From a virus (taxonomy: Duplodnaviria; Caudoviricetes): a DNA stretch of 32,239 nt. Location: the IMG/VR virus record IMGVR_UViG_3300048861_000279, positions 1-32,239 of that record; one strand, given 5' to 3'. Each line of letters opens with the position of its first letter. Within the stretch, counting starts at the first letter, position 1. Positions 3,162 to 11,905 of the stretch are shown here, in pieces. Made by a program: the position numbers and the translations under genes. The notes beneath the pieces were generated by a model. It did not search any database and was not told the origin of the DNA. It saw only the letters and a program-made list of their open reading frames with translations.

Positions 3162-4109
3162 TTAGAGCGCGCCAGCGCGGTACACGATCTGCCCAATAAT
3201 TCGGAAGCTTTCCGCAGTCAATGAGACGGACCTGCTCGGCGTCTGATTGTTGTGGGAGTGTAGGGTGAGCTGTCCGCCGCTCTCCTTGAAAACTTGTTTC
3301 ACCAAGACCTCGTCTTCAAAGCAGACGGCGAATATTCGGCCATCCAGAGGCATGACTTGAGCCACGTCTATCAACAAAAGATCGCCGTCGGAAATTAGTG
3401 GAGACATGTCCTCGCCGCGGTAGCTGACTAGCCGACAATCGTGAGGGCTCGATCCTAACGACTGGAAGAGATTCGATGCGAAGGACATTGCTTCATTTTC
3501 CAGCGGATGCCAGATGACTTCCTTAGAGTCTCGGTCATATGCCATCAAAAGCCGGTCGAACGTGAATCTGCGCGTGAGATTGGTCGAGCGCACCCCAGTA
3601 AGAGATCTTTCCTGCCGAGGCTGCGGCGCCTTTTGGGCGGAGACCGCCTGCATCGCGCCCCCAGTGTCAAACCAATGGGGGGGCAGGTTGAGAGCGTGCT
3701 CTATTTTTTCGACTAGATCGTCCGGGAGCCTCAGATCTTCAGTCATGCCGCCGGAAAGTAGTTGATATACCTTTTTCTTTGGCAGACCGGCTGCATCGGC
3801 AAATTCATCTGGCGAATTTCCAAACCGATCTCGGATCAGATCCTTTAGTCTGCGCGCCCGGAACGCATATCGTTTCAAGGCGGCTGCGAGGTCCGGGCCG
3901 CCCTGATCCAGCTCCTGGTCACCTTCGAACAGCCAGGCCGGTGACACCTCCAGCGCCTGCGCCAAGGGGAGTAGTAATTTTGTTCGCGTGTAGGCTCCCC
4001 GCTCGAGCGCAGCGATCAGACTTTGGCTCGAACCTATCATTTCGGCCAACTGCGCTTGTGAAAGCCCCACTGCCAAACGACGCTCGCGGAGCCGATCGCT
4101 AAGTGCCAT
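3162..4109 (-). CDS. cI: CI-like phage repressor: XRE HTH, second HTH-like domain, S24-like C-terminal domain
   Basis: N-terminal LSDRLRERRLAVGLSQAQLAEMIGSSQSLIAALERG; C-terminal GEDMSPLISDGDLLLID...VLVKQV...LHSHN...FRIIGQIV; divergent from cro; GGAGAG SD. Confidence 0.92.
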   Translation of the reverse strand: MALSDRLRERRLAVGLSQAQLAEMIGSSQSLIAALERGAYTRTKLLLPLAQALEVSPAWLFEGDQELDQGGPDLAAALKRYAFRARRLKDLIRDRFGNSPDEFADAAGLPKKKVYQLLSGGMTEDLRLPDDLVEKIEHALNLPPHWFDTGGAMQAVSAQKAPQPRQERSLTGVRSTNLTRRFTFDRLLMAYDRDSKEVIWHPLENEAMSFASNLFQSLGSSPHDCRLVSYRGEDMSPLISDGDLLLIDVAQVMPLDGRIFAVCFEDEVLVKQVFKESGGQLTLHSHNNQTPSRSVSLTAESFRIIGQIVYRAGAL

Positions 4110-4158: not shown

Positions 4159-4190
4159 TTGACAAGCGAAAATAGTAGATAGATACTATT
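4159..4190 (+). promoter_or_regulatory. PR-like promoter with overlapping palindromic operator
   Basis: TTGACA (4159-4164)-17 nt-GATACT (4182-4187), the same hexamers as lambda PL; inverted repeat AATAGTA-N6-TACTATT at 4171-4190. Confidence 0.8.
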
Positions 4191-4194
4191 CTGC

Positions 4195-4428
4195 ATGAAC
4201 TGGTCTCGAATTATTAGCCAACTGATGGATTGCGGCGTTCCGCAGGTAGTCATTGCTGCCCATTTGGATGTGAGCCAAGCCACTGTTAGCCAAATCTTGC
4301 GTTCCGAGGGAACGCGGAAGGTCGACTACGAAAAGGCTGTCAAGTTGCTCGATCTGCATCGACAGTGCCTTCAGTCACGAAACTCTTTATCCGAGTCGGA
4401 AAAGACATCAGGAGCGGTTTATGACTAA
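4195..4428 (+). CDS. cro: Cro-like HTH protein
   Basis: 77 aa with HTH-like segment PQVVIAAHLDVSQATVSQIL; divergent from cI. Confidence 0.8.
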   Translation: MNWSRIISQLMDCGVPQVVIAAHLDVSQATVSQILRSEGTRKVDYEKAVKLLDLHRQCLQSRNSLSESEKTSGAVYD

Positions 4429-4666
4429 CGCTCCAAGCGTGGCTCGGAACGGCGCCCGGCTAGCTCAATCCGATGGTGAGCAATCCGTCGCAGCAACGTA
4501 TCGGGGTGGATTTTGCACTGAGCTTTTGACGATCGCCCGCGGCCTACGGATGACTGCAGCGCGCACGTCCCTCAAGCGTTTTCTCATGGCCTTATACCGT
4601 CAGGGCCTAGTGCCCGCCTGGGCCGTGCGCGCGGCTTTCTTCCTCTTCCGCCTGCGCTCGCTATGA
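4421..4666 (+). CDS. Hypothetical phage protein
   Basis: AGGAG SD; stop overlaps the next ATG. Confidence 0.6.
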   Translation: MTNAPSVARNGARLAQSDGEQSVAATYRGGFCTELLTIARGLRMTAARTSLKRFLMALYRQGLVPAWAVRAAFFLFRLRSL

Positions 4667-5562
4667 AATGTGATCTTCACCCCCTTTGTACCCTGTTCCC
4701 GCGCATGGGCGGCCCAGAATTCGAAGCGCTCAAAGCCGACATCGCCGCCAACGGCTTGCGCCAGCGCATCGTGCTGCACAACGATCTGATCCTCGATGGT
4801 GGCAATCGGTACCGGGCCTGCGTGGAAGTCGGCGTCAAGCCACAATTCAAGAAGTTCGACGGCGACAACATTGTCGCGTTCGTGCTGTCGGCCAATCTTC
4901 ATCGCCGCCACATGAGCGCCGGCCAGCAGGCCGCGCTTGTGGCCAGCGCGCAGGATTGGGATAAAACGCACCGGCAAGGGGGCGACGGCAGCAACCAGCA
5001 TGGGGCGAAAGAGCAAACCGGCAAAATTGCCGCTTTGCAGACCGTCGCGGATCGCGCAGCCCAGTCTGGCGCCAGCGAGCGCACGCAGCGCATGGCTGAC
5101 AAGGTGGCGCGCGCCGATCCTGACCTGGCCAAGCGGGTCGCACAGGGCGATGTCAGCTTGTCCAAGGCGGTGGAACAGATCACGCCGCCCAAGCCGGTGG
5201 ACACCGGCGTCGTGCGAAATGCGACGCCCGAGCAAGCCCGCGCCATGTCCGAGCCGGCCCCAAGCGATGGCATGGAAGACCCGGTCGAATTGCTGGAACA
5301 GGCCTACATCGACATCGCCAAGCTCGAGGCCCAGCTTGAAGCGCTCACACAAGACGACATGCCCGCCGAGCTGCGCAAGGCGATAAGCACGCGCCAGGGC
5401 ATCGAGGCGCGGCTGGCGCTGGAAATGACCAAGTCCAACGATCTGGATAAGAGCCTGCGCCAGTTCGGCAAGCTGACTTCGGATCTTCGGGAATTTCTCG
5501 GCGTCGAGTCGAACAGCAAAATCCTCTCCGCCGTGAAGGCGCTGCGCAAGGAAGCCCCGTAA
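4663..5562 (+). CDS. ParB/Srx-like N-terminal domain protein with HTH-like middle and coiled-coil C-terminus
   Basis: LKADIAANGLRQRIV...ILDGGNRYRAC...SANLHRRHMSAGQ matches the ParB N-domain pattern. Confidence 0.8.
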   Translation: MKCDLHPLCTLFPRMGGPEFEALKADIAANGLRQRIVLHNDLILDGGNRYRACVEVGVKPQFKKFDGDNIVAFVLSANLHRRHMSAGQQAALVASAQDWDKTHRQGGDGSNQHGAKEQTGKIAALQTVADRAAQSGASERTQRMADKVARADPDLAKRVAQGDVSLSKAVEQITPPKPVDTGVVRNATPEQARAMSEPAPSDGMEDPVELLEQAYIDIAKLEAQLEALTQDDMPAELRKAISTRQGIEARLALEMTKSNDLDKSLRQFGKLTSDLREFLGVESNSKILSAVKALRKEAP

Positions 5563-7071
5563 ATGGATCTCCGCCCCTATCAGCTTGACGCACTGGAACA
5601 GGTGCGCGAACACATCCGAAACGGTAAGAAAAATATCCTGCTGTGCGCCCCCACTGGATCCGGCAAGACGTTGATGAGCGGCCATATGGTCGCCGAATCG
5701 GACCGCAAGGGAAAGCGCAGCGCTTTCGTGGTCGATCGCGTCAACCTGGTGGATCAGACGAGCGAGACATTTCAGGGCCTGGGCATTGATCACGGCATCA
5801 TGCAGGCCGATCACTGGCGTTTCCGGCCAGGCCGCAACGCGCAGATCTGTTCGGCGCAGACATTGGCCCGGCGCCGGTGGCCCGATACGGATCTAATCGT
5901 GGTGGACGAGTGTCACACCGTCAGCGCGGTGGTGAAGAAGCGCATTGAGCCGCGCGACACCATCGCGATAGGCCTCACCGCAACGCCATTCACGCGCGGC
6001 CTGGGCAAGCTCTATGACGCACTGGTCAACGTCACCACGACCAACAGGCTGATCGAGCAGGGCTTCCTGTCCAAGTACCGCATCTTTGCTGCCTCCGAGC
6101 CTGACATGAAGGGCGTGCGAGTGGTGGCAGGCGAATGGGAAGAGAAGGAAGCGAGCAAGCGGGCGATGGAGGTGGTCGGCGACTGCGTGGCCGAATACCT
6201 CAAGCACGGCAACGGCAAGAAATTCATTTGCTCAGCGGTGGATGTGTCGCACGTCGAAGAGCTGGCGCGCCAGTTCATGGCGGCGGGCGTGATGGTGGCG
6301 GCCTATACCTACCGGGTGAAGGACGACGAGCGCTCGGACATCGTCAAAGAATTCCGCAAGCCAGACAGCTACATCCGGGGGCTGATCACTGTCACCGCCG
6401 CGTCCAAGGGTTTCGACGTGCCGGACATCGGCGTCGTCATCATGGCGCGGCCGCTGCGCAAGTCCCTGGCGGAACACATCCAATTCTTCGGCCGCGGCCT
6501 GCGCATCCATCCTGATAAGGACGGCCTCATCGTGCTGGACCACTCTGGCAACAGCGCGCGGTTCTGGAACGCCTGGAACGAGTTTTTCGAGCTCGGCGTC
6601 ACCGAGCTGGACGACGGCGAGAAAAAGCCGAAGCCCAAGGGCGAGAACGCCAAGCCCGAGGACAAGATGGTGAAGTGCGGCAGTTGCCAGCACTTGCACA
6701 AGGCCATGCCGTTCTGTCCGCATTGTGGTCACGAATACCCGAGGCGGGAAGCAGTGAAGCACGTCGCCGGCACGTTGGCAGAGATGGTGGCCGGGGGCGA
6801 GAAGAAGGCCCTGAGCGCAAAGCTCTGGCCGCAGATCGTCGGCTATTCGGTGGACAAACGGGGGCGCACTGAGCACGGCCGCAACCAGGCCCTGGCCCTC
6901 TATCGGAAGATCACCGGCGACTGGCCTATTGGCGATTTCTTCACCACGACCCCGGCGCCTCTTACCCCCGAGGTGGTGGGCAAGATTCGGTCCCTGAACA
7001 TCGCATACCAGAGGGGGCGTCAAGCCGCCGAAGCCGCCGCCGCTGCTTCGACAGTGGAAGCGCGCGCATGA
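5563..7071 (+). CDS. SF2 DEAD/DEAH-box helicase with C-terminal Zn finger
   Basis: LRPYQ Q-motif, Walker A APTGSGKT, DECH, GLTATP, KGFDVPD, QFFGRGLR, CxxC...CxxC. Confidence 0.93.
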   Translation: MDLRPYQLDALEQVREHIRNGKKNILLCAPTGSGKTLMSGHMVAESDRKGKRSAFVVDRVNLVDQTSETFQGLGIDHGIMQADHWRFRPGRNAQICSAQTLARRRWPDTDLIVVDECHTVSAVVKKRIEPRDTIAIGLTATPFTRGLGKLYDALVNVTTTNRLIEQGFLSKYRIFAASEPDMKGVRVVAGEWEEKEASKRAMEVVGDCVAEYLKHGNGKKFICSAVDVSHVEELARQFMAAGVMVAAYTYRVKDDERSDIVKEFRKPDSYIRGLITVTAASKGFDVPDIGVVIMARPLRKSLAEHIQFFGRGLRIHPDKDGLIVLDHSGNSARFWNAWNEFFELGVTELDDGEKKPKPKGENAKPEDKMVKCGSCQHLHKAMPFCPHCGHEYPRREAVKHVAGTLAEMVAGGEKKALSAKLWPQIVGYSVDKRGRTEHGRNQALALYRKITGDWPIGDFFTTTPAPLTPEVVGKIRSLNIAYQRGRQAAEAAAAASTVEARA

Positions 7072-7964
7072 CGATGAGCTTTCACCAATTTGCGGAGGCC
7101 CACGGCCTCATCATCACGACGATGATGGAAGGGCGGTGGATCCGCACGCGCACCGCTGACAAGCCGAAGCACCGCAACGGCGCGTACAAATATCTAGGTG
7201 ACGTTGGGTTCGTGCAGAACCACGCGACGATGACGGAGGTGGCCACCTGGCGCTCCGACAAGCCGCCGACCGAGGCCCAGCGACGATTCTCCGATGCCCA
7301 GGCGCGCGCGCTGCGCGAACGCGAGGCGAAGAAGCGTATCACCGCGATCCGCCAGATGCGCGAGTATTGGGACCGTCTCCCGGCGTTTCGCGGCGAGCAC
7401 CCCTATCTGGTCCGCAAGGGCCTGTCGATGATGGGCTGCAAAGACCTGCGTATCGACGGTGACCTGCTGGCGATTCCGCTGTGCAGCGGGCCCTCGCTCA
7501 TGAGCCTTCAAACAATTGACCCGGACGGCGCCAAGCGGTATCGCTACGGCTGCCCGATCAAAGGCAATTCGCTCCTTCTCGCGCGCCCCCGATCGGTGGT
7601 CACCTGCCTGGTCGAAGGCTTCGCCACCGGCCTGGCCATCTATCAATCCCTGCCGCAGGCATCGGTAATCGTCTGCTTCGACGCCGGCAACATGGTCAAC
7701 GTGGCCGAAAAGTTGAAGGTTCGCGGGATGGTGGTGGTCTGCGCCGATAACGATTGGCAAACCCAGAACAAGATTGGCGTGAATACGGGCCTGGAGAAGG
7801 GCCGTAGCGCCGCCGCAGCCATCGGGTGCGGTATGGCCTACCCGGAAGGAATTTTCGGCTCTGACTGGGCCGACGCGCTGGCCGAATGGAAAGAAGCAGG
7901 GCCCGGCCGTTTGCGCGTGGAAATCATGCGGCACGCCAAGCCCGTTTCTATCGGCGCGCGGTGA
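7068..7964 (+). CDS. TOPRIM-domain DNA primase
   Basis: HPYLVRKG, SLQTI, VEGFATG, CFDAGN, CADND, SDWAD motifs. Confidence 0.88.
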   Translation: MTMSFHQFAEAHGLIITTMMEGRWIRTRTADKPKHRNGAYKYLGDVGFVQNHATMTEVATWRSDKPPTEAQRRFSDAQARALREREAKKRITAIRQMREYWDRLPAFRGEHPYLVRKGLSMMGCKDLRIDGDLLAIPLCSGPSLMSLQTIDPDGAKRYRYGCPIKGNSLLLARPRSVVTCLVEGFATGLAIYQSLPQASVIVCFDAGNMVNVAEKLKVRGMVVVCADNDWQTQNKIGVNTGLEKGRSAAAAIGCGMAYPEGIFGSDWADALAEWKEAGPGRLRVEIMRHAKPVSIGAR

Positions 7965-8161
7965 TGGGCGGGCATATGGAATATCTCGTACATCCACGCA
8001 AGCCGAGCCGCAAGGCGCACATCTGGGGCGCTACGGACACGCTTTGCCATGCCTACGCGAACGGCGTTATCAGCCGCAGCAGCAGCTTTGCAGTCGTTCC
8101 GAACTCCGGCTCGGCGCCTGTCTGCCGGCACTGCCGAGGCATTTCTATGAAGCCCAAATAG
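7964..8161 (+). CDS. Small Cys/His-containing hypothetical protein
   Basis: TGATG coupling to primase; AH...LC...CRHC pattern. Confidence 0.55.
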   Translation: MGGHMEYLVHPRKPSRKAHIWGATDTLCHAYANGVISRSSSFAVVPNSGSAPVCRHCRGISMKPK

Positions 8162-8180
8162 ACGGATCGAAGTTATTGCA

Positions 8181-8377
8181 CCTTCGTTGGTCGGACATCA
8201 TTTAACGACAGCGGCGAAGGCGAGAGGCCCTTACTGTGGGATAGATCTGAAACAGGGGCACTGGCGGCGAGGTTAGCACCAGGGATCGATAAGGCTGACG
8301 GGTTATGTGGCTCCAGGACGGATCAACATATGAAGGCCTCGTTGATGGATGGCGGGGCCTGTTCACCAGAACAGATC
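8181..8377 (+). ncRNA. Candidate structured ncRNA or structured replication element
   Basis: 258-bp ORF-free gap with at least five consecutive hand-folded hairpins, G-U pairs on the + strand, and a possible pseudoknot. Confidence 0.55.
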
Positions 8378-8419
8378 ATGGTTTAAAGCTTGAGTCTTTA
8401 AGGGTTTAAGGGGTTAGCG

Positions 8420-8638
8420 ATGTCACTTAAGAACACAGATGGGGTGCTGCCACCGAAAGTCGAAAAGCGGCTTTCGGATCTCATCGCGATGGGCGAATTT
8501 TCCACACCCGAAGCGGATTTCTGCCGGCGCACCTACTGGCACCGGTTTGCCGACGGCGCCGAGCAGCGCCACGAGTGGCACCAGATCCTGATCAATTGTT
8601 TTGACCGCGCGCAGAAGCGCATTGGAGCAGCAGCATGA
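8420..8638 (+). CDS. Hypothetical phage protein
   Basis: AAGGGG SD; stop overlaps the next ATG. Confidence 0.65.
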   Translation: MSLKNTDGVLPPKVEKRLSDLIAMGEFSTPEADFCRRTYWHRFADGAEQRHEWHQILINCFDRAQKRIGAAA

Positions 8639-8676
8639 GCATTTCTACCGCGAAGCCGTCGGAGGCCCACGAATGA
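8635..8676 (+). CDS. 13-codon mini-ORF (MSISTAKPSEAHE), translationally coupled on both sides
   Basis: ATGA overlaps at 8635-8638 and 8673-8676; GGAG SD at 8624-8627. Confidence 0.4.
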   Translation: MSISTAKPSEAHE

Positions 8677-9317
8677 CCATGACCATCATTGCTCAAGGAC
8701 ACCAAACCGCCGCGGCACCAGCGGAGGCGCCGCTCTTTTCCAGCGCCCACGCCGCGCTGACCTTTGCCTACAACCACTCGCACCAGGTCTACGAGCGGCC
8801 GCTCATGAACCGTATGGCGGATGGCCCTGGCGTGCGCACCGGGAAGGGTCTGGGCGGCGTAGACGGATCGGCGCAGGCTGGCATGGTGCTGAGCAGCCTC
8901 AAGCTGTTGCCGCGCTTGCACTTGGCGATCATCCAAGCGCGCTTCATGCCGCGCACCAAGGAATGCGTTTGCTGCAGGAGCAAGATCGACAACGTGGAAT
9001 GGCTGGACGCCATTCGGGAGATCTCGGATGTGGCCGCATGTCAGGCGTTATCCACACACCCTACCAGCCGCACGCTCCGCGATGCGATCATCCGAGGCTA
9101 TTTCGGGCAGAAGGTCGTGCTATCGCAGGAGGCCGATCGCGCCGGCGTTACGGCCAATACTGTGACGCGGCATAAGGGCATGATCGTAAGGTGGCTTCGC
9201 GGCTCGAGGACGGAAATTGGCGCAGACGGCGAGCGCGGCGCGGGGCAGATCGGTGTTGAGGCGGTTGCTATGGAGAGCATTGCGGCGATCCTTGGTGCAA
9301 AAGGCATTTGCAACTGA
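8673..9317 (+). CDS. Putative late-gene regulator / Q-like antiterminator
   Basis: GGAGG SD at 8661; last gene of the right early operon; CxCC motif and C-terminal HTH-like segment; followed by a promoter and terminator. Confidence 0.6.
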   Translation: MTMTIIAQGHQTAAAPAEAPLFSSAHAALTFAYNHSHQVYERPLMNRMADGPGVRTGKGLGGVDGSAQAGMVLSSLKLLPRLHLAIIQARFMPRTKECVCCRSKIDNVEWLDAIREISDVAACQALSTHPTSRTLRDAIIRGYFGQKVVLSQEADRAGVTANTVTRHKGMIVRWLRGSRTEIGADGERGAGQIGVEAVAMESIAAILGAKGICN

Positions 9318-9320
9318 CTC

Positions 9321-9349
9321 TTGTAATTGTAGATTTCGTCTGTTAAAGT
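9321..9349 (+). promoter_or_regulatory. pR'-like late promoter
   Basis: TTGTAA-17 nt-TAAAGT with extended -10 TG at 9341-9342. Confidence 0.6.
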
Positions 9350-9387
9350 CAGCCCTGTTTAGTTACTGTTGATCAGTATGCAGAAAA

Positions 9388-9440
9388 AAAAGCCCCGCAG
9401 CGCAAAAGCCCCGCAGCGCAAAAGCGCCGGGGCTGTTTTC
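9388..9440 (+). terminator. tR'-like terminator whose left arm is tandemly duplicated (16 bp)
   Basis: AAAAGCCCCGCAGCGC x2, then AAAAGCGCCGGGGCTGTTTTC; stems AGCCCCG/CGGGGCT and GCGC/GCGC. Confidence 0.65.
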
Positions 9441-9514
9441 GTTTGGCGCTAGATGTGCTGGCTAACTCAGCCATGCTCAGTGACAATGTGGTATTCCCAA
9501 AAGGAGATCACATT

Positions 9515-9994
9515 GTGAATTTTGTCCCTTACCAAGATGCCGCGTTAGATGAAGTGGTCGCGGAAGTCACCCAACGAAAGGACTTGGACTATTGGGCCGC
9601 GGAGTTTTACAAAGTAATCTTTATTTCGCCGCAAGCTAATGTTGACGAATTGAACGCGACCTTTGAGGCGTTCGGACCTGCCCCCGGCGTGCGGTTTCAG
9701 GCCTACCGGCAACGTGTCGTCAGCACGTATACCCAGGTGCGGGTGGAGGGGAAATTAATTGGTCGATTCATGTTTTACCTCGTGTCTGAACCTCCGCTAG
9801 TTCAGCCATCCCTAACTGCGATCTTTGCTCTTGATCTGGATTCCGAAGGTGGTTTCCGACTAGGTAATAAAGGTCCATTTGCGCACAGCATTCGTACAAG
9901 CCAGACCACACAAGAGCGGGTCAAACTGATTGCTCTTTTGAAGAAAAATCTGATGTGCGCGGTGACGGCAGCCCCCAATGGGCTGATAGTTTAG
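9515..9994 (+). CDS. Moron 1, hypothetical protein (~159 aa)
   Basis: AAGGAG SD then GTG at 9515; lower GC; own downstream terminator. Confidence 0.7.
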   Translation: MNFVPYQDAALDEVVAEVTQRKDLDYWAAEFYKVIFISPQANVDELNATFEAFGPAPGVRFQAYRQRVVSTYTQVRVEGKLIGRFMFYLVSEPPLVQPSLTAIFALDLDSEGGFRLGNKGPFAHSIRTSQTTQERVKLIALLKKNLMCAVTAAPNGLIV

Positions 9995-10089
9995 GAACAT
10001 CCTCGCGCGAGTTTTGCCTATTACGCGAACTTGGTGCCAGGGATTCACTCTAACTACAGCGATTTGAATTTGCTGCACGTAATACGACC

Positions 10090-10120
10090 GCCCCGGCGTG
10101 ATCCAGCCCGGGGCTTTGTT
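10090..10120 (+). terminator. Intrinsic terminator after moron 1
   Basis: GCCCCGG...CCGGGGC followed by TTTGTT. Confidence 0.6.
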
Positions 10121-10307
10121 ATGTGCGGCGTTCATACCGCCTTAATGTGTATCGAACGGGGAATGGTCTCGCAGCCAATTCTTTAGGGCGGCATCCATGC
10201 AAGGCTTTCATGCACCTTCGGAAGCCATATGTGAAGCTTTTGTCTCTACGCTGTTTGAGTAGCGCTGCGCTATAGTCGCGACATCCCATACAAGGAGCGA
10301 GGCGAGC

Positions 10308-11252
10308 GTGGCTGAAAATGAAGATATTGAGCTGAGAGCGGATCTGTTGAAGGACGTAACTACATCGTCCTTCGCTCAGAACATAAACGCGTTTCGGTCT
10401 GCGCTTCTCAAATACGACGCTGAAATCGCGACGAATAGTACCGACTGGCGACGGGCAGTCCACTTACTTCGTGAGGCGGATGCGCTCAGGCAGGAAGTCG
10501 AACGCCAGATGAAAGAGCAGCAAGCCGTGAAATACCAGCCTACGGTGCCACGCGAAGATATGGAGGAGGTTTTTGCCTTATTCAAACGCATCTGGGGCAA
10601 CACCATTGACGCAATCAGCAGGGGCTATCCCTACATCTTTGGCCCGCAGGCAGATTCCATTCTGACTGCAATTTCTGGTTTGCCTGATTCTGCGGAAAAA
10701 TCTGTGTTCTTAGGGATCGCAAAATTAATGCGCGATACCGCTCAGCAGATGAAAGATAGCCCGGCTACCCTTTCGCTTTTCTTCGGCGCTTTCGTTAAGA
10801 ATTTGGCTAAAACGCCCGAACCGTATGCCAAGTTGGCCACCCAGCTCATGGGTGCAGCGCCGCCGAGTCCTCCGCCCGTAGAGCACCGAGATGGTGGAAA
10901 TGAGGGCGGTGACATGAATCGGCGGGTTTCAAACCTTGAACGTTCTTTCGAGAAAATCTCCGAGGATGTGTCCGATATCAAGATTACCCTCGCGACCGTC
11001 AGTCAAGCGTTGAAGTATCTAGCGACGAAGGAAGATGTGGCGTCCGCTTCCAAGGGCCGAGAGGCAAACGTTTCTCTTCAGGGAATGGCGAGCAAGGAAG
11101 ACTTATCGCCCATTCTGGCAAAGATTGCCGAAATCAATTCACACTTGAAGCATGTTCCGACGAAATTTGGCCTATTGGTTGCAGTAGCCGTGCCGGTGGC
11201 CAGCGGCGGTTGGTGGATATTTCAGCAATTAGTGACGCGGGGCGTAATTTAA
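10308..11252 (+). CDS. Moron 2: helical N-domain, Pro/Gly linker, coiled coil, C-terminal transmembrane anchor
   Basis: GAGG SD, GTG start; GGDMNRRVSNLE...LATKEDV...ASKEDL; hydrophobic FGLLVAVAVPVASGGWWIF; lower GC. Confidence 0.78.
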   Translation: MAENEDIELRADLLKDVTTSSFAQNINAFRSALLKYDAEIATNSTDWRRAVHLLREADALRQEVERQMKEQQAVKYQPTVPREDMEEVFALFKRIWGNTIDAISRGYPYIFGPQADSILTAISGLPDSAEKSVFLGIAKLMRDTAQQMKDSPATLSLFFGAFVKNLAKTPEPYAKLATQLMGAAPPSPPPVEHRDGGNEGGDMNRRVSNLERSFEKISEDVSDIKITLATVSQALKYLATKEDVASASKGREANVSLQGMASKEDLSPILAKIAEINSHLKHVPTKFGLLVAVAVPVASGGWWIFQQLVTRGVI

Positions 11253-11305
11253 CGATAGCCACATCGAGCGGTTGGCTACCGCCGTTAACCGGTTCAGCCG
11301 CGCCA

Positions 11306-11404
11306 GCGCACGGGGACTGCCCAAGTCTTGCATCCGCGGTGCCACCGGGACTTACCTTTTGAGGTTGCTCGGTGCTGTGCGCATCGAATTCGCACGCCGT
11401 GCGC
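11306..11404 (+). ncRNA. Candidate cloverleaf / tRNA-like structured RNA
   Basis: Perfect 8-bp closing stem GCGCACGG/CCGTGCGC enclosing four hairpins; last loop contains TCGAAT. Confidence 0.5.
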
Positions 11405-11407
11405 ATT

Positions 11408-11764
11408 ATGGCGAAAACAAATCAACCGGTTGACCTGAGCCTGCCCTCTTGGCGCGGCTCCAAGCTGACCGCAGCGCAACGCGGGTACGACGGCAAGTGG
11501 CGCAAGGCGCGCATCTCGTTTTTGCAGGAACACCCGCTCTGCGAATATTGCGAGCAGGACGGCCGCATCGAGCAGGCCACAGTGGTCAATCACCGCATTC
11601 CACACAAGGGCGATCAGCAGCTGTTCTGGGATCGGTCGAACTGGGCCTCGGCCTGCAAGACCCACCACGACAGCACCATCGCACGTGAAGAGCACAGAGG
11701 CCACCTGATCGGCGGCGACGTGCAAGGAAACCCGCTTGACCCTGCCCACCACTGGAATCGGTGA
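11408..11764 (+). CDS. HNH endonuclease (HK97 gp74-like packaging cofactor)
   Basis: RGYDGKWRKAR..FL.EHPLC..C...VVNHRIPHKGD..LFWD.SNW...CKTHH; directly upstream of terS. Confidence 0.92.
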   Translation: MAKTNQPVDLSLPSWRGSKLTAAQRGYDGKWRKARISFLQEHPLCEYCEQDGRIEQATVVNHRIPHKGDQQLFWDRSNWASACKTHHDSTIAREEHRGHLIGGDVQGNPLDPAHHWNR

Positions 11765-11804
11765 CCTCGATGAGGCGATCCGGTGAACCCGCAGGATTTT
11801 GCAG

Positions 11805-11880
11805 CATAGCCCCGCCCTATGGGTGGGGGCGGGTCGAAAGTCCAAGGCGATTTGCCGGTAGACCGACCGGTATCTCGTCG
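11805..11880. other. Candidate cos site (cohesive-end packaging origin)
   Basis: Between HNH and terS; CCCGCCC-N9-GGGCGGG dyad followed by TCGAAAGT, in the position expected for HK97-like cos phages. Confidence 0.55.
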
Positions 11881-11905
11881 ATTAACGCTAACCGAGAATA
11901 TTCCC

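Follow-up and report, generated by a model that had tools for sequence, protein, structure and literature searches.

The Betaproteobacteria-1 RNA is a phage RNA family held in Rfam as RF02932, where it is typed as 'Gene; sRNA', and it is presumably one of the motifs of the 224-motif survey of Weinberg et al. 2017. It has no assigned function. A literature search for 'Betaproteobacteria-1' and 'RF02932' found no paper concerning the RNA, as judged by titles and abstract openings, and the motif goes unmentioned in the main text of PMC5737381. Here we describe an RNA of this family encoded by an HK97-like temperate phage, whose 32,239-base provirus record (IMG/VR IMGVR_UViG_3300048861_000279; estimated 78% complete) was analysed over its whole length and is referred to below as the window. 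The RNA is located in a gap between genes (8162–8419; + strand) in which an initial annotation, made from the sequence alone, had proposed a novel non-coding RNA or a structured origin of replication.

Several other classes of phage and plasmid RNA bear comparison with it. The put RNAs of phage HK022 act in processive antitermination as nascent phage RNA and consist of two simple stem-loops within ~70 nt. The window RNA resembles them as a phage-encoded folded RNA that lies in the sense orientation in early transcripts and needs no promoter of its own; it differs in having no sequence or family match to them, in its larger size and its pseudoknots, in its distance of 4 kb from the promoter and in the lack of predicted terminators downstream. 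The C4 immunity RNAs of P1 and P7 and the CI immunity RNA of P4 are processed from an early transcript and carry phage-specific complementary words. A location inside an early phage transcript, predicted here, and a short phage-specific word that is repeated nearby are features in common; however, the copies of the word in the present family are in the same sense, a search of 20 sequences revealed no third, complementary site, and there is no Rfam match to C4. Structured non-coding elements are also found beside replication functions in plasmids, as with RNA II of ColE1. The ARRPOF, PAGEV and GEBRO motifs are plasmid regions that PMC5737381 links with replication through experiments or predicted origins. 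The likeness of the window RNA to all of these is one of setting, whereas none of them is matched in Rfam at E values up to 10 and its own link to replication is gene adjacency; the analogy to ARRPOF and PAGEV was drawn in the initial annotation.

Assignment to the Betaproteobacteria-1 family

Comparison of the whole window with Rfam 15 using cmscan gives RF02932 as the sole match at the gathering threshold (8180–8303, + strand; 83.4 bits, with the cut-off at 49.4; E = 3.7e-14 for the search of the entire window). The match covers model positions 1–120 of 120 and is not truncated. All of the unpaired nucleotides of the consensus (GGuCGG, CAGCgg, CUGuGGGa, CUGAAA, GGCGAAG and CGGGU) are present in the window according to the cmscan alignment, and the same nucleotides correspond to invariant or nearly invariant columns in two alignments of relatives (A1 and A3). 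A permissive scan of positions 7800–8800 at E values up to 10 returned noise besides RF02932, the best being FourU with 15.6 bits against a cut-off of 60. The window RNA and the family share helices P1, P2 and P3 as well as the conserved loop nucleotides, and from this homology there can be hardly any doubt that the gap contains a full-length member of the family. The RNA element at 8180–8368 is thus, by homology, already known as a family and is not a discovery. The initial annotation had itself stated that a strong Rfam match would make the RNA known rather than novel, and its claim of novelty falls with the score of RF02932; its claim that the gap holds a structured non-coding element is confirmed by this homology and by covariation.

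The best overall explanation of the locus, to which we assign a probability of about 70%, is an RF02932 member of ~190 nt with two pseudoknots that is likely transcribed with the early operon and is predicted to act through its RNA fold, and not as a DNA origin.

Relatives and their distribution

The relatives used for comparison comprise 51 loci from phage contigs and bacterial genomes, which reduce to 46 distinct RNA sequences. A degenerate pattern of 20 bases, drawn from the conserved core, located 29 loci in viral contigs, and RF02932 is above its cut-off in 24 of these 29 viral records (80.7–102 bits, one copy apiece). The same pattern found 95 loci in genome contigs, seven of which were confirmed as members by profile search; a weak 42-nt match among the genome-contig loci (L083; E = 1e-4) was dropped as a chance hit. 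The confirmed carriers are Paraburkholderia phenoliruptrix, Paraburkholderia sp., Achromobacter xylosoxidans (a metagenome-assembled genome, MAG), Pigmentiphaga daeguensis, Thauera propionica, a Burkholderiaceae MAG and a 'Proteobacteria' MAG, such that members come from genomes of the Burkholderiales and Rhodocyclales in addition to phage contigs. Whole-genome searches identify RF02932 in all five of the named betaproteobacterial carrier genomes, with three copies above the cut-off in one. Sampling within the GTDB family of a carrier yields it in 13 of 151 genomes, and a class-wide sample in one of 151, that one being the genome at the centre of the sample. No similar DNA was detected among 50,697 phage records, either with the gap (blastn) or with 16 kb of the window (megablast).

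One Paraburkholderia genome (G032) has four copies of the RF02932 type, three of them above the cut-off. Three lie on one contig (C8; 212951–213067, 248798–248914 and 253622–253732) and the fourth on another (C5; 194886–195006). The three copies on the first contig are within 41 kb of each other and may represent adjacent prophages or one multi-copy element.

Core helices and two pseudoknots

The 5′ domain of the RNA (8180–8303, + strand) is the part matched by RF02932. Alignment A3 contains 27 sequences aligned with MAFFT, with all eight helices of the RNA written in. In this alignment 87.7% of cells are paired, as against 34–41% when the partners are slid by 1–3 columns; compensatory changes occur in 28 of 42 pairs, the covariation score is 0.443 against at most 0.12, and none of 500 shuffles matches any observed measure. 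Conservation and covariation among relatives, which the initial annotation had put forward as a check, are therefore both evident. P1 (8181–8189/8212–8220) is paired in 100% of cells and has compensatory changes in seven of its eight pairs, the outer part of P2 (GCCCUU/AGGGGC; 8227–8232/8254–8259) is paired in 93.8% of cells with five of six pairs compensatory, and P3 as defined by Rfam (GUUAGC/GCUGAC; 8272–8277/8294–8299) is paired in 98.1% with three of six. P1 and the outer part of P2 agree with stems drawn in the initial annotation; the inner extensions that it had added, GUCG/CGAC in P1 and CUGU/ACAG in P2, each form fully in only 14 of the 27 sequences.

MAFFT misplaces P5 and one of the two pseudoknots (PK-B) in some rows of A3, and the A3 counts consequently understate these helices. 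Pairing was also scored with positions set by sequence anchors, comparing the own partner strands of each sequence with mismatched ones and, for the pseudoknots, counting those with at least four consecutive pairs. By this measure PK-A (CUGG/CCAG; 8261–8264/8279–8282) forms between own partners in 34 of 45 cases and between mismatched partners in 261 of 1810. PK-B, in which GAUC of the P2 loop (8244–8247) pairs with the GAUC directly following PK-A (8284–8287), forms in 43 of 45 cases and 442 of 1808 respectively. Both helices covary. All four Watson-Crick combinations occur at positions three to five of PK-A in relatives, with examples such as AUGGG/CCCAU, GAGCGG/CCGCUC, ACAGG/CCUGU and CGCGC/GCGUG, and PK-B is represented by GUGUC/GACAC, GAUGC/GCAUC, GUUUC/GAAAC, GACUC/GAGUC, GCCC/GGGC and GAGC/GCUC.

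Because PK-A encloses the 5′ arm of P3, these two helices together constitute an H-type pseudoknot. The CUGG/CCAG pairing had been recognised in the initial annotation and named P3; it covaries, but it is not a simple stem, since it crosses the P3 of the Rfam model, which had been missed. A long-range pairing had likewise been proposed between the P2 loop and CAGATC at 8372–8377. That site is the best partner in one of 20 sequences tested, namely the window itself, and the true partner is the GAUC at 8284–8287. As judged by covariation and partner specificity, helices P1–P5 (P4 and P5 are described below) and both pseudoknots are real.

An additional hairpin located directly before P1 (within the 30 nt upstream) is present in L127–L130, L133–L138 and L140–L145, and varies in a compensatory manner (CUCUUC/GAAGAG, CCUUC/GAAGG, CCGUC/GACGG). 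The start of the RNA may be farther upstream in these subgroups.

A conserved 3′ domain and the functional strand

The Rfam model ends at CGGGU (8303), but the conserved RNA extends for a further ~65–75 nt, giving a total of ~190 nt from 8180 to ~8368. The additional 3′ domain (8304–8368, + strand) is defined by alignments A2 and A3, and no Rfam family matches there. It begins with P4 (UAUGU/ACAUA; 8304–8308/8326–8330), which has a near-invariant GGCUCC (8309–8314) in the 5′ part of its loop, and is followed by UGAAGG or UAAAGG (8331–8336), by P5 (GGCCUCGU/GCGGGGCC; 8335–8342/8352–8359) whose loop is purine-rich (AGGAUGGGCU type), and by a tail, UGUUCACCA (8360–8368), of the GCYCACC(A)/CACCA type. 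The remainder of the gap (8369–8419) is an unconserved spacer that includes AAGGGG, the ribosome-binding region of the next gene. The UGAAGG-type anchor is found in 45 of the 46 distinct sequences. P4 forms at least five pairs between own partners in 34 of 46 cases and between mismatched partners in 414 of 1936; for P5, with at least six pairs, the counts are 40 of 46 and 970 of 2042 (means of 7.9 and 5.8). Together with the covariation in A3 these figures uphold both P4 and P5, which had been placed correctly in the initial annotation. A pseudoknot between the P5 loop and the tail was considered and rejected (a score of 4.1 with own and 4.15 with foreign partners). The ~190-nt model, with two covarying pseudoknots and a 3′ domain, improves on the catalogue entry, whose model stops at 8303 and whose structure line in cmscan shows neither pseudoknot.

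Divergent subgroups appear by eye to elaborate the 3′ domain with an extra P4 hairpin or with a long-range helix around UGAAGG and P5. In L056, L132, L135 and L137 a long-range helix of the GAGGCUGA/UCAGCCUC type encloses UGAAGG and a P5-like hairpin and is followed by ACCA, a topology unlike that of the main group. The chromosomal copy L130 (G280:C4) retains the 5′ domain and GGCUCC, diverges completely ~12 nt past the Rfam end and has neither UGAAGG nor P5; it looks truncated or disrupted. A G/T-rich, C-poor tract of the GGGAUGUGGUGUUGGGGUUGAAGAG type is situated ~85–120 nt past the Rfam end in L002, L005, L010, L012, L017, L021 and L025. Its counterpart in the window, AAGGGUUUAAGGGGUU at ~8398–8413, doubles as the ribosome-binding region of the next gene.

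The five G-U pairs on which the initial annotation had relied in favouring a single-stranded molecule are present on the + strand only, and across the relatives in A3 the wobble positions remain U-G or C-G on that strand. The + strand also folds better, with a minimum free energy of -78.2 kcal/mol versus -55.9 kcal/mol for the - strand, which is worse by 22 kcal/mol. That the element is one of + strand RNA, rather than a double-stranded DNA site for a protein, is accordingly well supported by these comparisons.

Genomic placement

The context of the RNA was compared across the 51 loci using a longest open reading frame (ORF) heuristic and all-against-all BLAST. In at least 21 of the 51 loci the RNA is preceded, on its own strand, by genes for an SF2 helicase and a Toprim primase, in accord with the placement downstream of helicase-primase genes noted in the initial annotation. 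In 18 of those the primase stop codon is 8–17 nt from P1, and in the window, L006 and L016 the distance is ~200 nt greater. Residues 3–293 of the window primase align with the primases of relatives whose stop codon is 8–17 nt before the RNA; the window primase is thus full length, and the extra DNA corresponds to an unconserved small ORF (7964–8161).

Other members have different neighbours. In L017 the RNA follows a Cro-like gene and precedes an RNase H gene, with a strong promoter-like site 320 nt upstream; in L003 it is behind an HNH gene, in L013 between recombination genes and a primase-helicase gene, and in L143 ahead of a gene for an O-like initiator. No downstream protein cluster is common to more than five loci. 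The RNA is always in the sense orientation and always in phage early, replication or recombination regions. Members thus have in common their location in the phage early region and their sense orientation, and no single neighbour. The context is now firm: the RNA is found in sense in early regions of temperate phages in Burkholderiales-type bacteria, very often directly behind a primase gene.

A duplicated, phage-specific word

The 3′ half of P4 is repeated exactly and in the same sense ~47–54 nt downstream, just behind the CACCA tail, or 65–77 nt downstream where P4 is longer. The repeated word is 5–9 nt long and phage-specific, with ACGGGAAG, GGTTCATG, GGTGATGT, AGGGGCAT and TCAGTCAGA among its forms, and its positions are fixed relative to the Rfam end, at +12 to +21 and +58 to +98 (e.g. 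L002, L004, L062, L074, L128, L056). A shared word of at least 7 nt links P4 and its own tail in 15 of 46 sequences, compared with 142 of 2024 foreign combinations. It is present exactly twice within ~900 nt on either side in 11 of 20 sequences checked, typically those with longer words. The word of the window is weak, with only 5 nt (GATCA at 8321–8325 and 8374–8378). In 20 sequences tested for a complementary partner of the word, the best sites were inconsistent. An alternative pairing between the 5′ strand of P4 and the tail has an energy of -9.4 kcal/mol with own and -8.3 kcal/mol with foreign tails (13 of 45 in the best tenth) and is weak family-wide, although L008 has a strong alternative helix (-18.9 kcal/mol).

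Possible functions of the RNA

No promoter and no + strand terminator are predicted in the gap, and the primase stop in relatives is 8–17 nt from P1; from this we infer that the RNA would be co-transcribed as part of the early replication operon, from a predicted early rightward promoter ~4 kb upstream on the same strand (4159–4187; TTGACA-17-GATACT, found by consensus scan only). Among the sequencing runs listed as covering positions 7000–9500 there is none of RNA; the two with full coverage are soil-metagenome DNA runs, from which the record itself may derive. The RNA would then be made at the onset of early transcription, and would be either stable or processed out of the polycistronic transcript. 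It may work in trans by binding a host or phage protein partner, a suggestion made because the neighbours vary, the position within the early region varies, and the invariant nucleotides are in loops and junctions. The binding surface would be formed by these nucleotides (GGUCGG, CAGCGG, CUGNGGGA, CUGAAA, GGCGAAG, GGCUCC and UGAAGG). Such an early-made, stable or processed, trans-acting and protein-binding RNA is the leading candidate for the mechanism, but a tentative one that we consider somewhat short of even odds. A sponge for CsrA/RsmA, for which GGA motifs are present in the P2, P4 and P5 loops, was rejected, as PF02599 is found in none of the five carrier genomes while the E. coli, B. 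subtilis and T. maritima controls are positive.

Several observations weigh against these conclusions. The short distance from the primase stop in 18 loci would be just as compatible with a role in replication or with action in cis on the operon transcript, and an RNA with neither promoter nor terminator of its own fits a cis element as well as it fits a processed RNA. The duplicated word, which hints at a two-state or specificity mechanism, is unexplained by protein binding. The DNA is G+C-rich and the ORF calls are heuristic, so that the context counts are lower bounds, with the L004, L008 and L045 groups mis-called on the minus strand. The folding energy is no better than that of shuffled sequences (z = -0.5 for the 258-nt + strand, -0.25 for the - strand, -0.5 for 124 nt and -0.9 for 200 nt), and the comparison with shuffles suggested in the initial annotation thus reveals no excess stability at z-scores of -0.5 to -0.9. 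Folding-energy z-scores are uninformative for this G+C-rich RNA, and the element is placed beyond chance by homology and covariation, not by folding energy.

Among the alternatives, a cis-acting readthrough element similar to put, in which the nascent RNA would modify RNA polymerase or block Rho loading such that early transcription continues downstream, is unlikely. The RNA is always in sense inside a same-strand array and without its own promoter or terminator, the variable downstream genes suit an element that is independent of gene content, and some members, such as L017, are shortly behind an early promoter; moreover, none of the 23 window ORFs scanned resembles a Q- or N-type antiterminator in Pfam or PHROG. 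However, no + strand intrinsic terminator is predicted at 8300–11900, before the packaging genes (Rho-dependent sites are not predictable), and terminator-like hits are at chance level (12 versus 9.8±3.5); the 4 kb from the early promoter and the ~190 nt with two pseudoknots, as against ~70 nt for put, are further departures. Self-cleavage or other catalysis by which the RNA would process the early polycistronic transcript is the least probable of the explanations. The compact, doubly pseudoknotted fold with invariant unpaired nucleotides and the location between genes of phage operons, where many small self-cleaving ribozymes sit, would suit it, but there is no recognisable catalytic core, and no Rfam ribozyme family matches at E values up to 10. 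A two-state switch or specificity element is also improbable, to a greater degree than the readthrough element. Here the 5′ strand of P4, with its anti-Shine-Dalgarno-like GGCUCC, would pair with either copy of the word or with the ribosome-binding region farther downstream; the next gene would thereby be controlled, or a phage-specific recognition set, in loose analogy to the C4 RNA of P1 and the CI RNA of P4. The excess of own shared words, their phage-specific sequences at fixed positions, their restriction to two copies in 11 of 20 sequences and the strong alternative helices of members such as L008 all favour this; yet the pairing with own tails is barely above that with foreign tails, no consistent complementary partner was found in the 20 sequences tested, the word of the window has just 5 nt, and the downstream genes are not conserved.

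A role in replication is about as improbable as the switch. Here the RNA would act at an origin of the SF2 helicase and Toprim primase, whether by priming, by forming an R-loop or as a cofactor in loading. This role draws on the position behind the primase stop in 18 loci and behind the helicase-primase pair in 21 of 51, on other members that adjoin genes for an O-like initiator, a primase-helicase or RNase H, and on the G/T-rich, C-poor tract behind the RNA in several relatives, a composition that favours RNA-DNA hybrids. As the initial annotation had observed, the window shows no sign of a lambda-type O/P initiator with iterons. The adjacency is weak evidence, however, because early operons contain replication genes anyway, and members behind HNH or Cro-like genes have no adjacent primase. 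Positions 7900–8700 contain no iterons and only two-copy repeats at chance level, no plasmid or replication RNA family matches in the Rfam scan at E values up to 10, and to our knowledge primer RNAs do not resemble a double-pseudoknot fold with invariant loops. Folded as DNA, the element is no better than shuffles (z = -0.2). The primer, R-loop or folded single-stranded origin proposed in the initial annotation thus finds no direct support in the search for iterons, the members with no adjacent primase or the DNA fold, while the structured and strand-specific RNA that it described is retained. A stronger version, in which the ~190-nt RNA would be the origin-defining component of an SF2 helicase/Toprim primase replicon that recruits or primes the enzymes, with the duplicated word setting phage specificity, is very improbable; if true, it would amount to an RNA-specified replication origin replacing an initiator protein and iterons. 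With the fold and context now described, the Betaproteobacteria-1 family offers a well-defined experimental target in a cultivable carrier such as Paraburkholderia phenoliruptrix LMG 22037, Pigmentiphaga daeguensis JCM 14330 or Thauera propionica KNDSS-Mac4.

Gene content of the window

The gap is bounded by the + strand ORF that ends at 8161 and by an ORF for a 72-aa protein (8420–8638), and had been described in the initial annotation as free of ORFs. Two short ORFs are in fact present (8202–8366, - strand, 54 aa; 8305–8409, + strand, 34 aa), and neither is conserved. A coding role for the 34-aa ORF was rejected, as its ATG at 8305 is not conserved and the corresponding frames of 25 relatives are 1–52 aa long and unrelated, eight of them without an ATG. 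A mini-ORF in the P5 loop (AUG GGC stop) was also set aside, being present by eye in some relatives only.

To the left of the gap, a CI-like S24 repressor gene (3162–4109) is transcribed on the - strand, and the predicted early promoter precedes a Cro-like gene (4195–4428) on the + strand, both genes being identified in Pfam and PHROG scans. The first large gene of the early operon (4663–5562, + strand) encodes a ParB-like protein with a weak match to a ParB-like partition nuclease PHROG (2.8e-6) and no Pfam match; it could be a candidate initiator or origin-binding protein of the replicon. The SF2 (ResIII/DEAD) DNA helicase gene (5563–7071, + strand; Pfam ResIII, 6.6e-23; PHROG 16, 2.1e-83) and the full-length Toprim DNA primase gene (7068–7964, + strand; Pfam Toprim_3; PHROG 2249, 9e-42) follow. 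The small ORF between the primase gene and the RNA (7964–8161, + strand) is listed as 7886–8161 (91 aa), and an ATG overlapping the primase stop, as read from the sequence, would give a product of ~65 aa. The product is Cys/His-rich and has no family match in Pfam or PHROG and no homologue in the other 50 loci at E ≤ 1e-3; most relatives have no gene between primase and RNA.

The first gene after the RNA, that for the 72-aa protein (+ strand), has no Pfam or PHROG match, and tblastn places homologues behind the RNA in just two loci, L029 (E = 2e-11) and L004 (E = 1e-10). It is the first of four + strand ORFs (72, 238, 183 and 314 aa) that occupy 8420–11252, before the HNH and terminase genes. 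None of the four has a Pfam match, the sole PHROG matches are those of the 314-aa ORF to two families without known function, and no late-gene regulator is recognised among them. Farther along the window are genes identified by Pfam and PHROG as encoding HNH, small and large terminase, portal, protease and capsid proteins.

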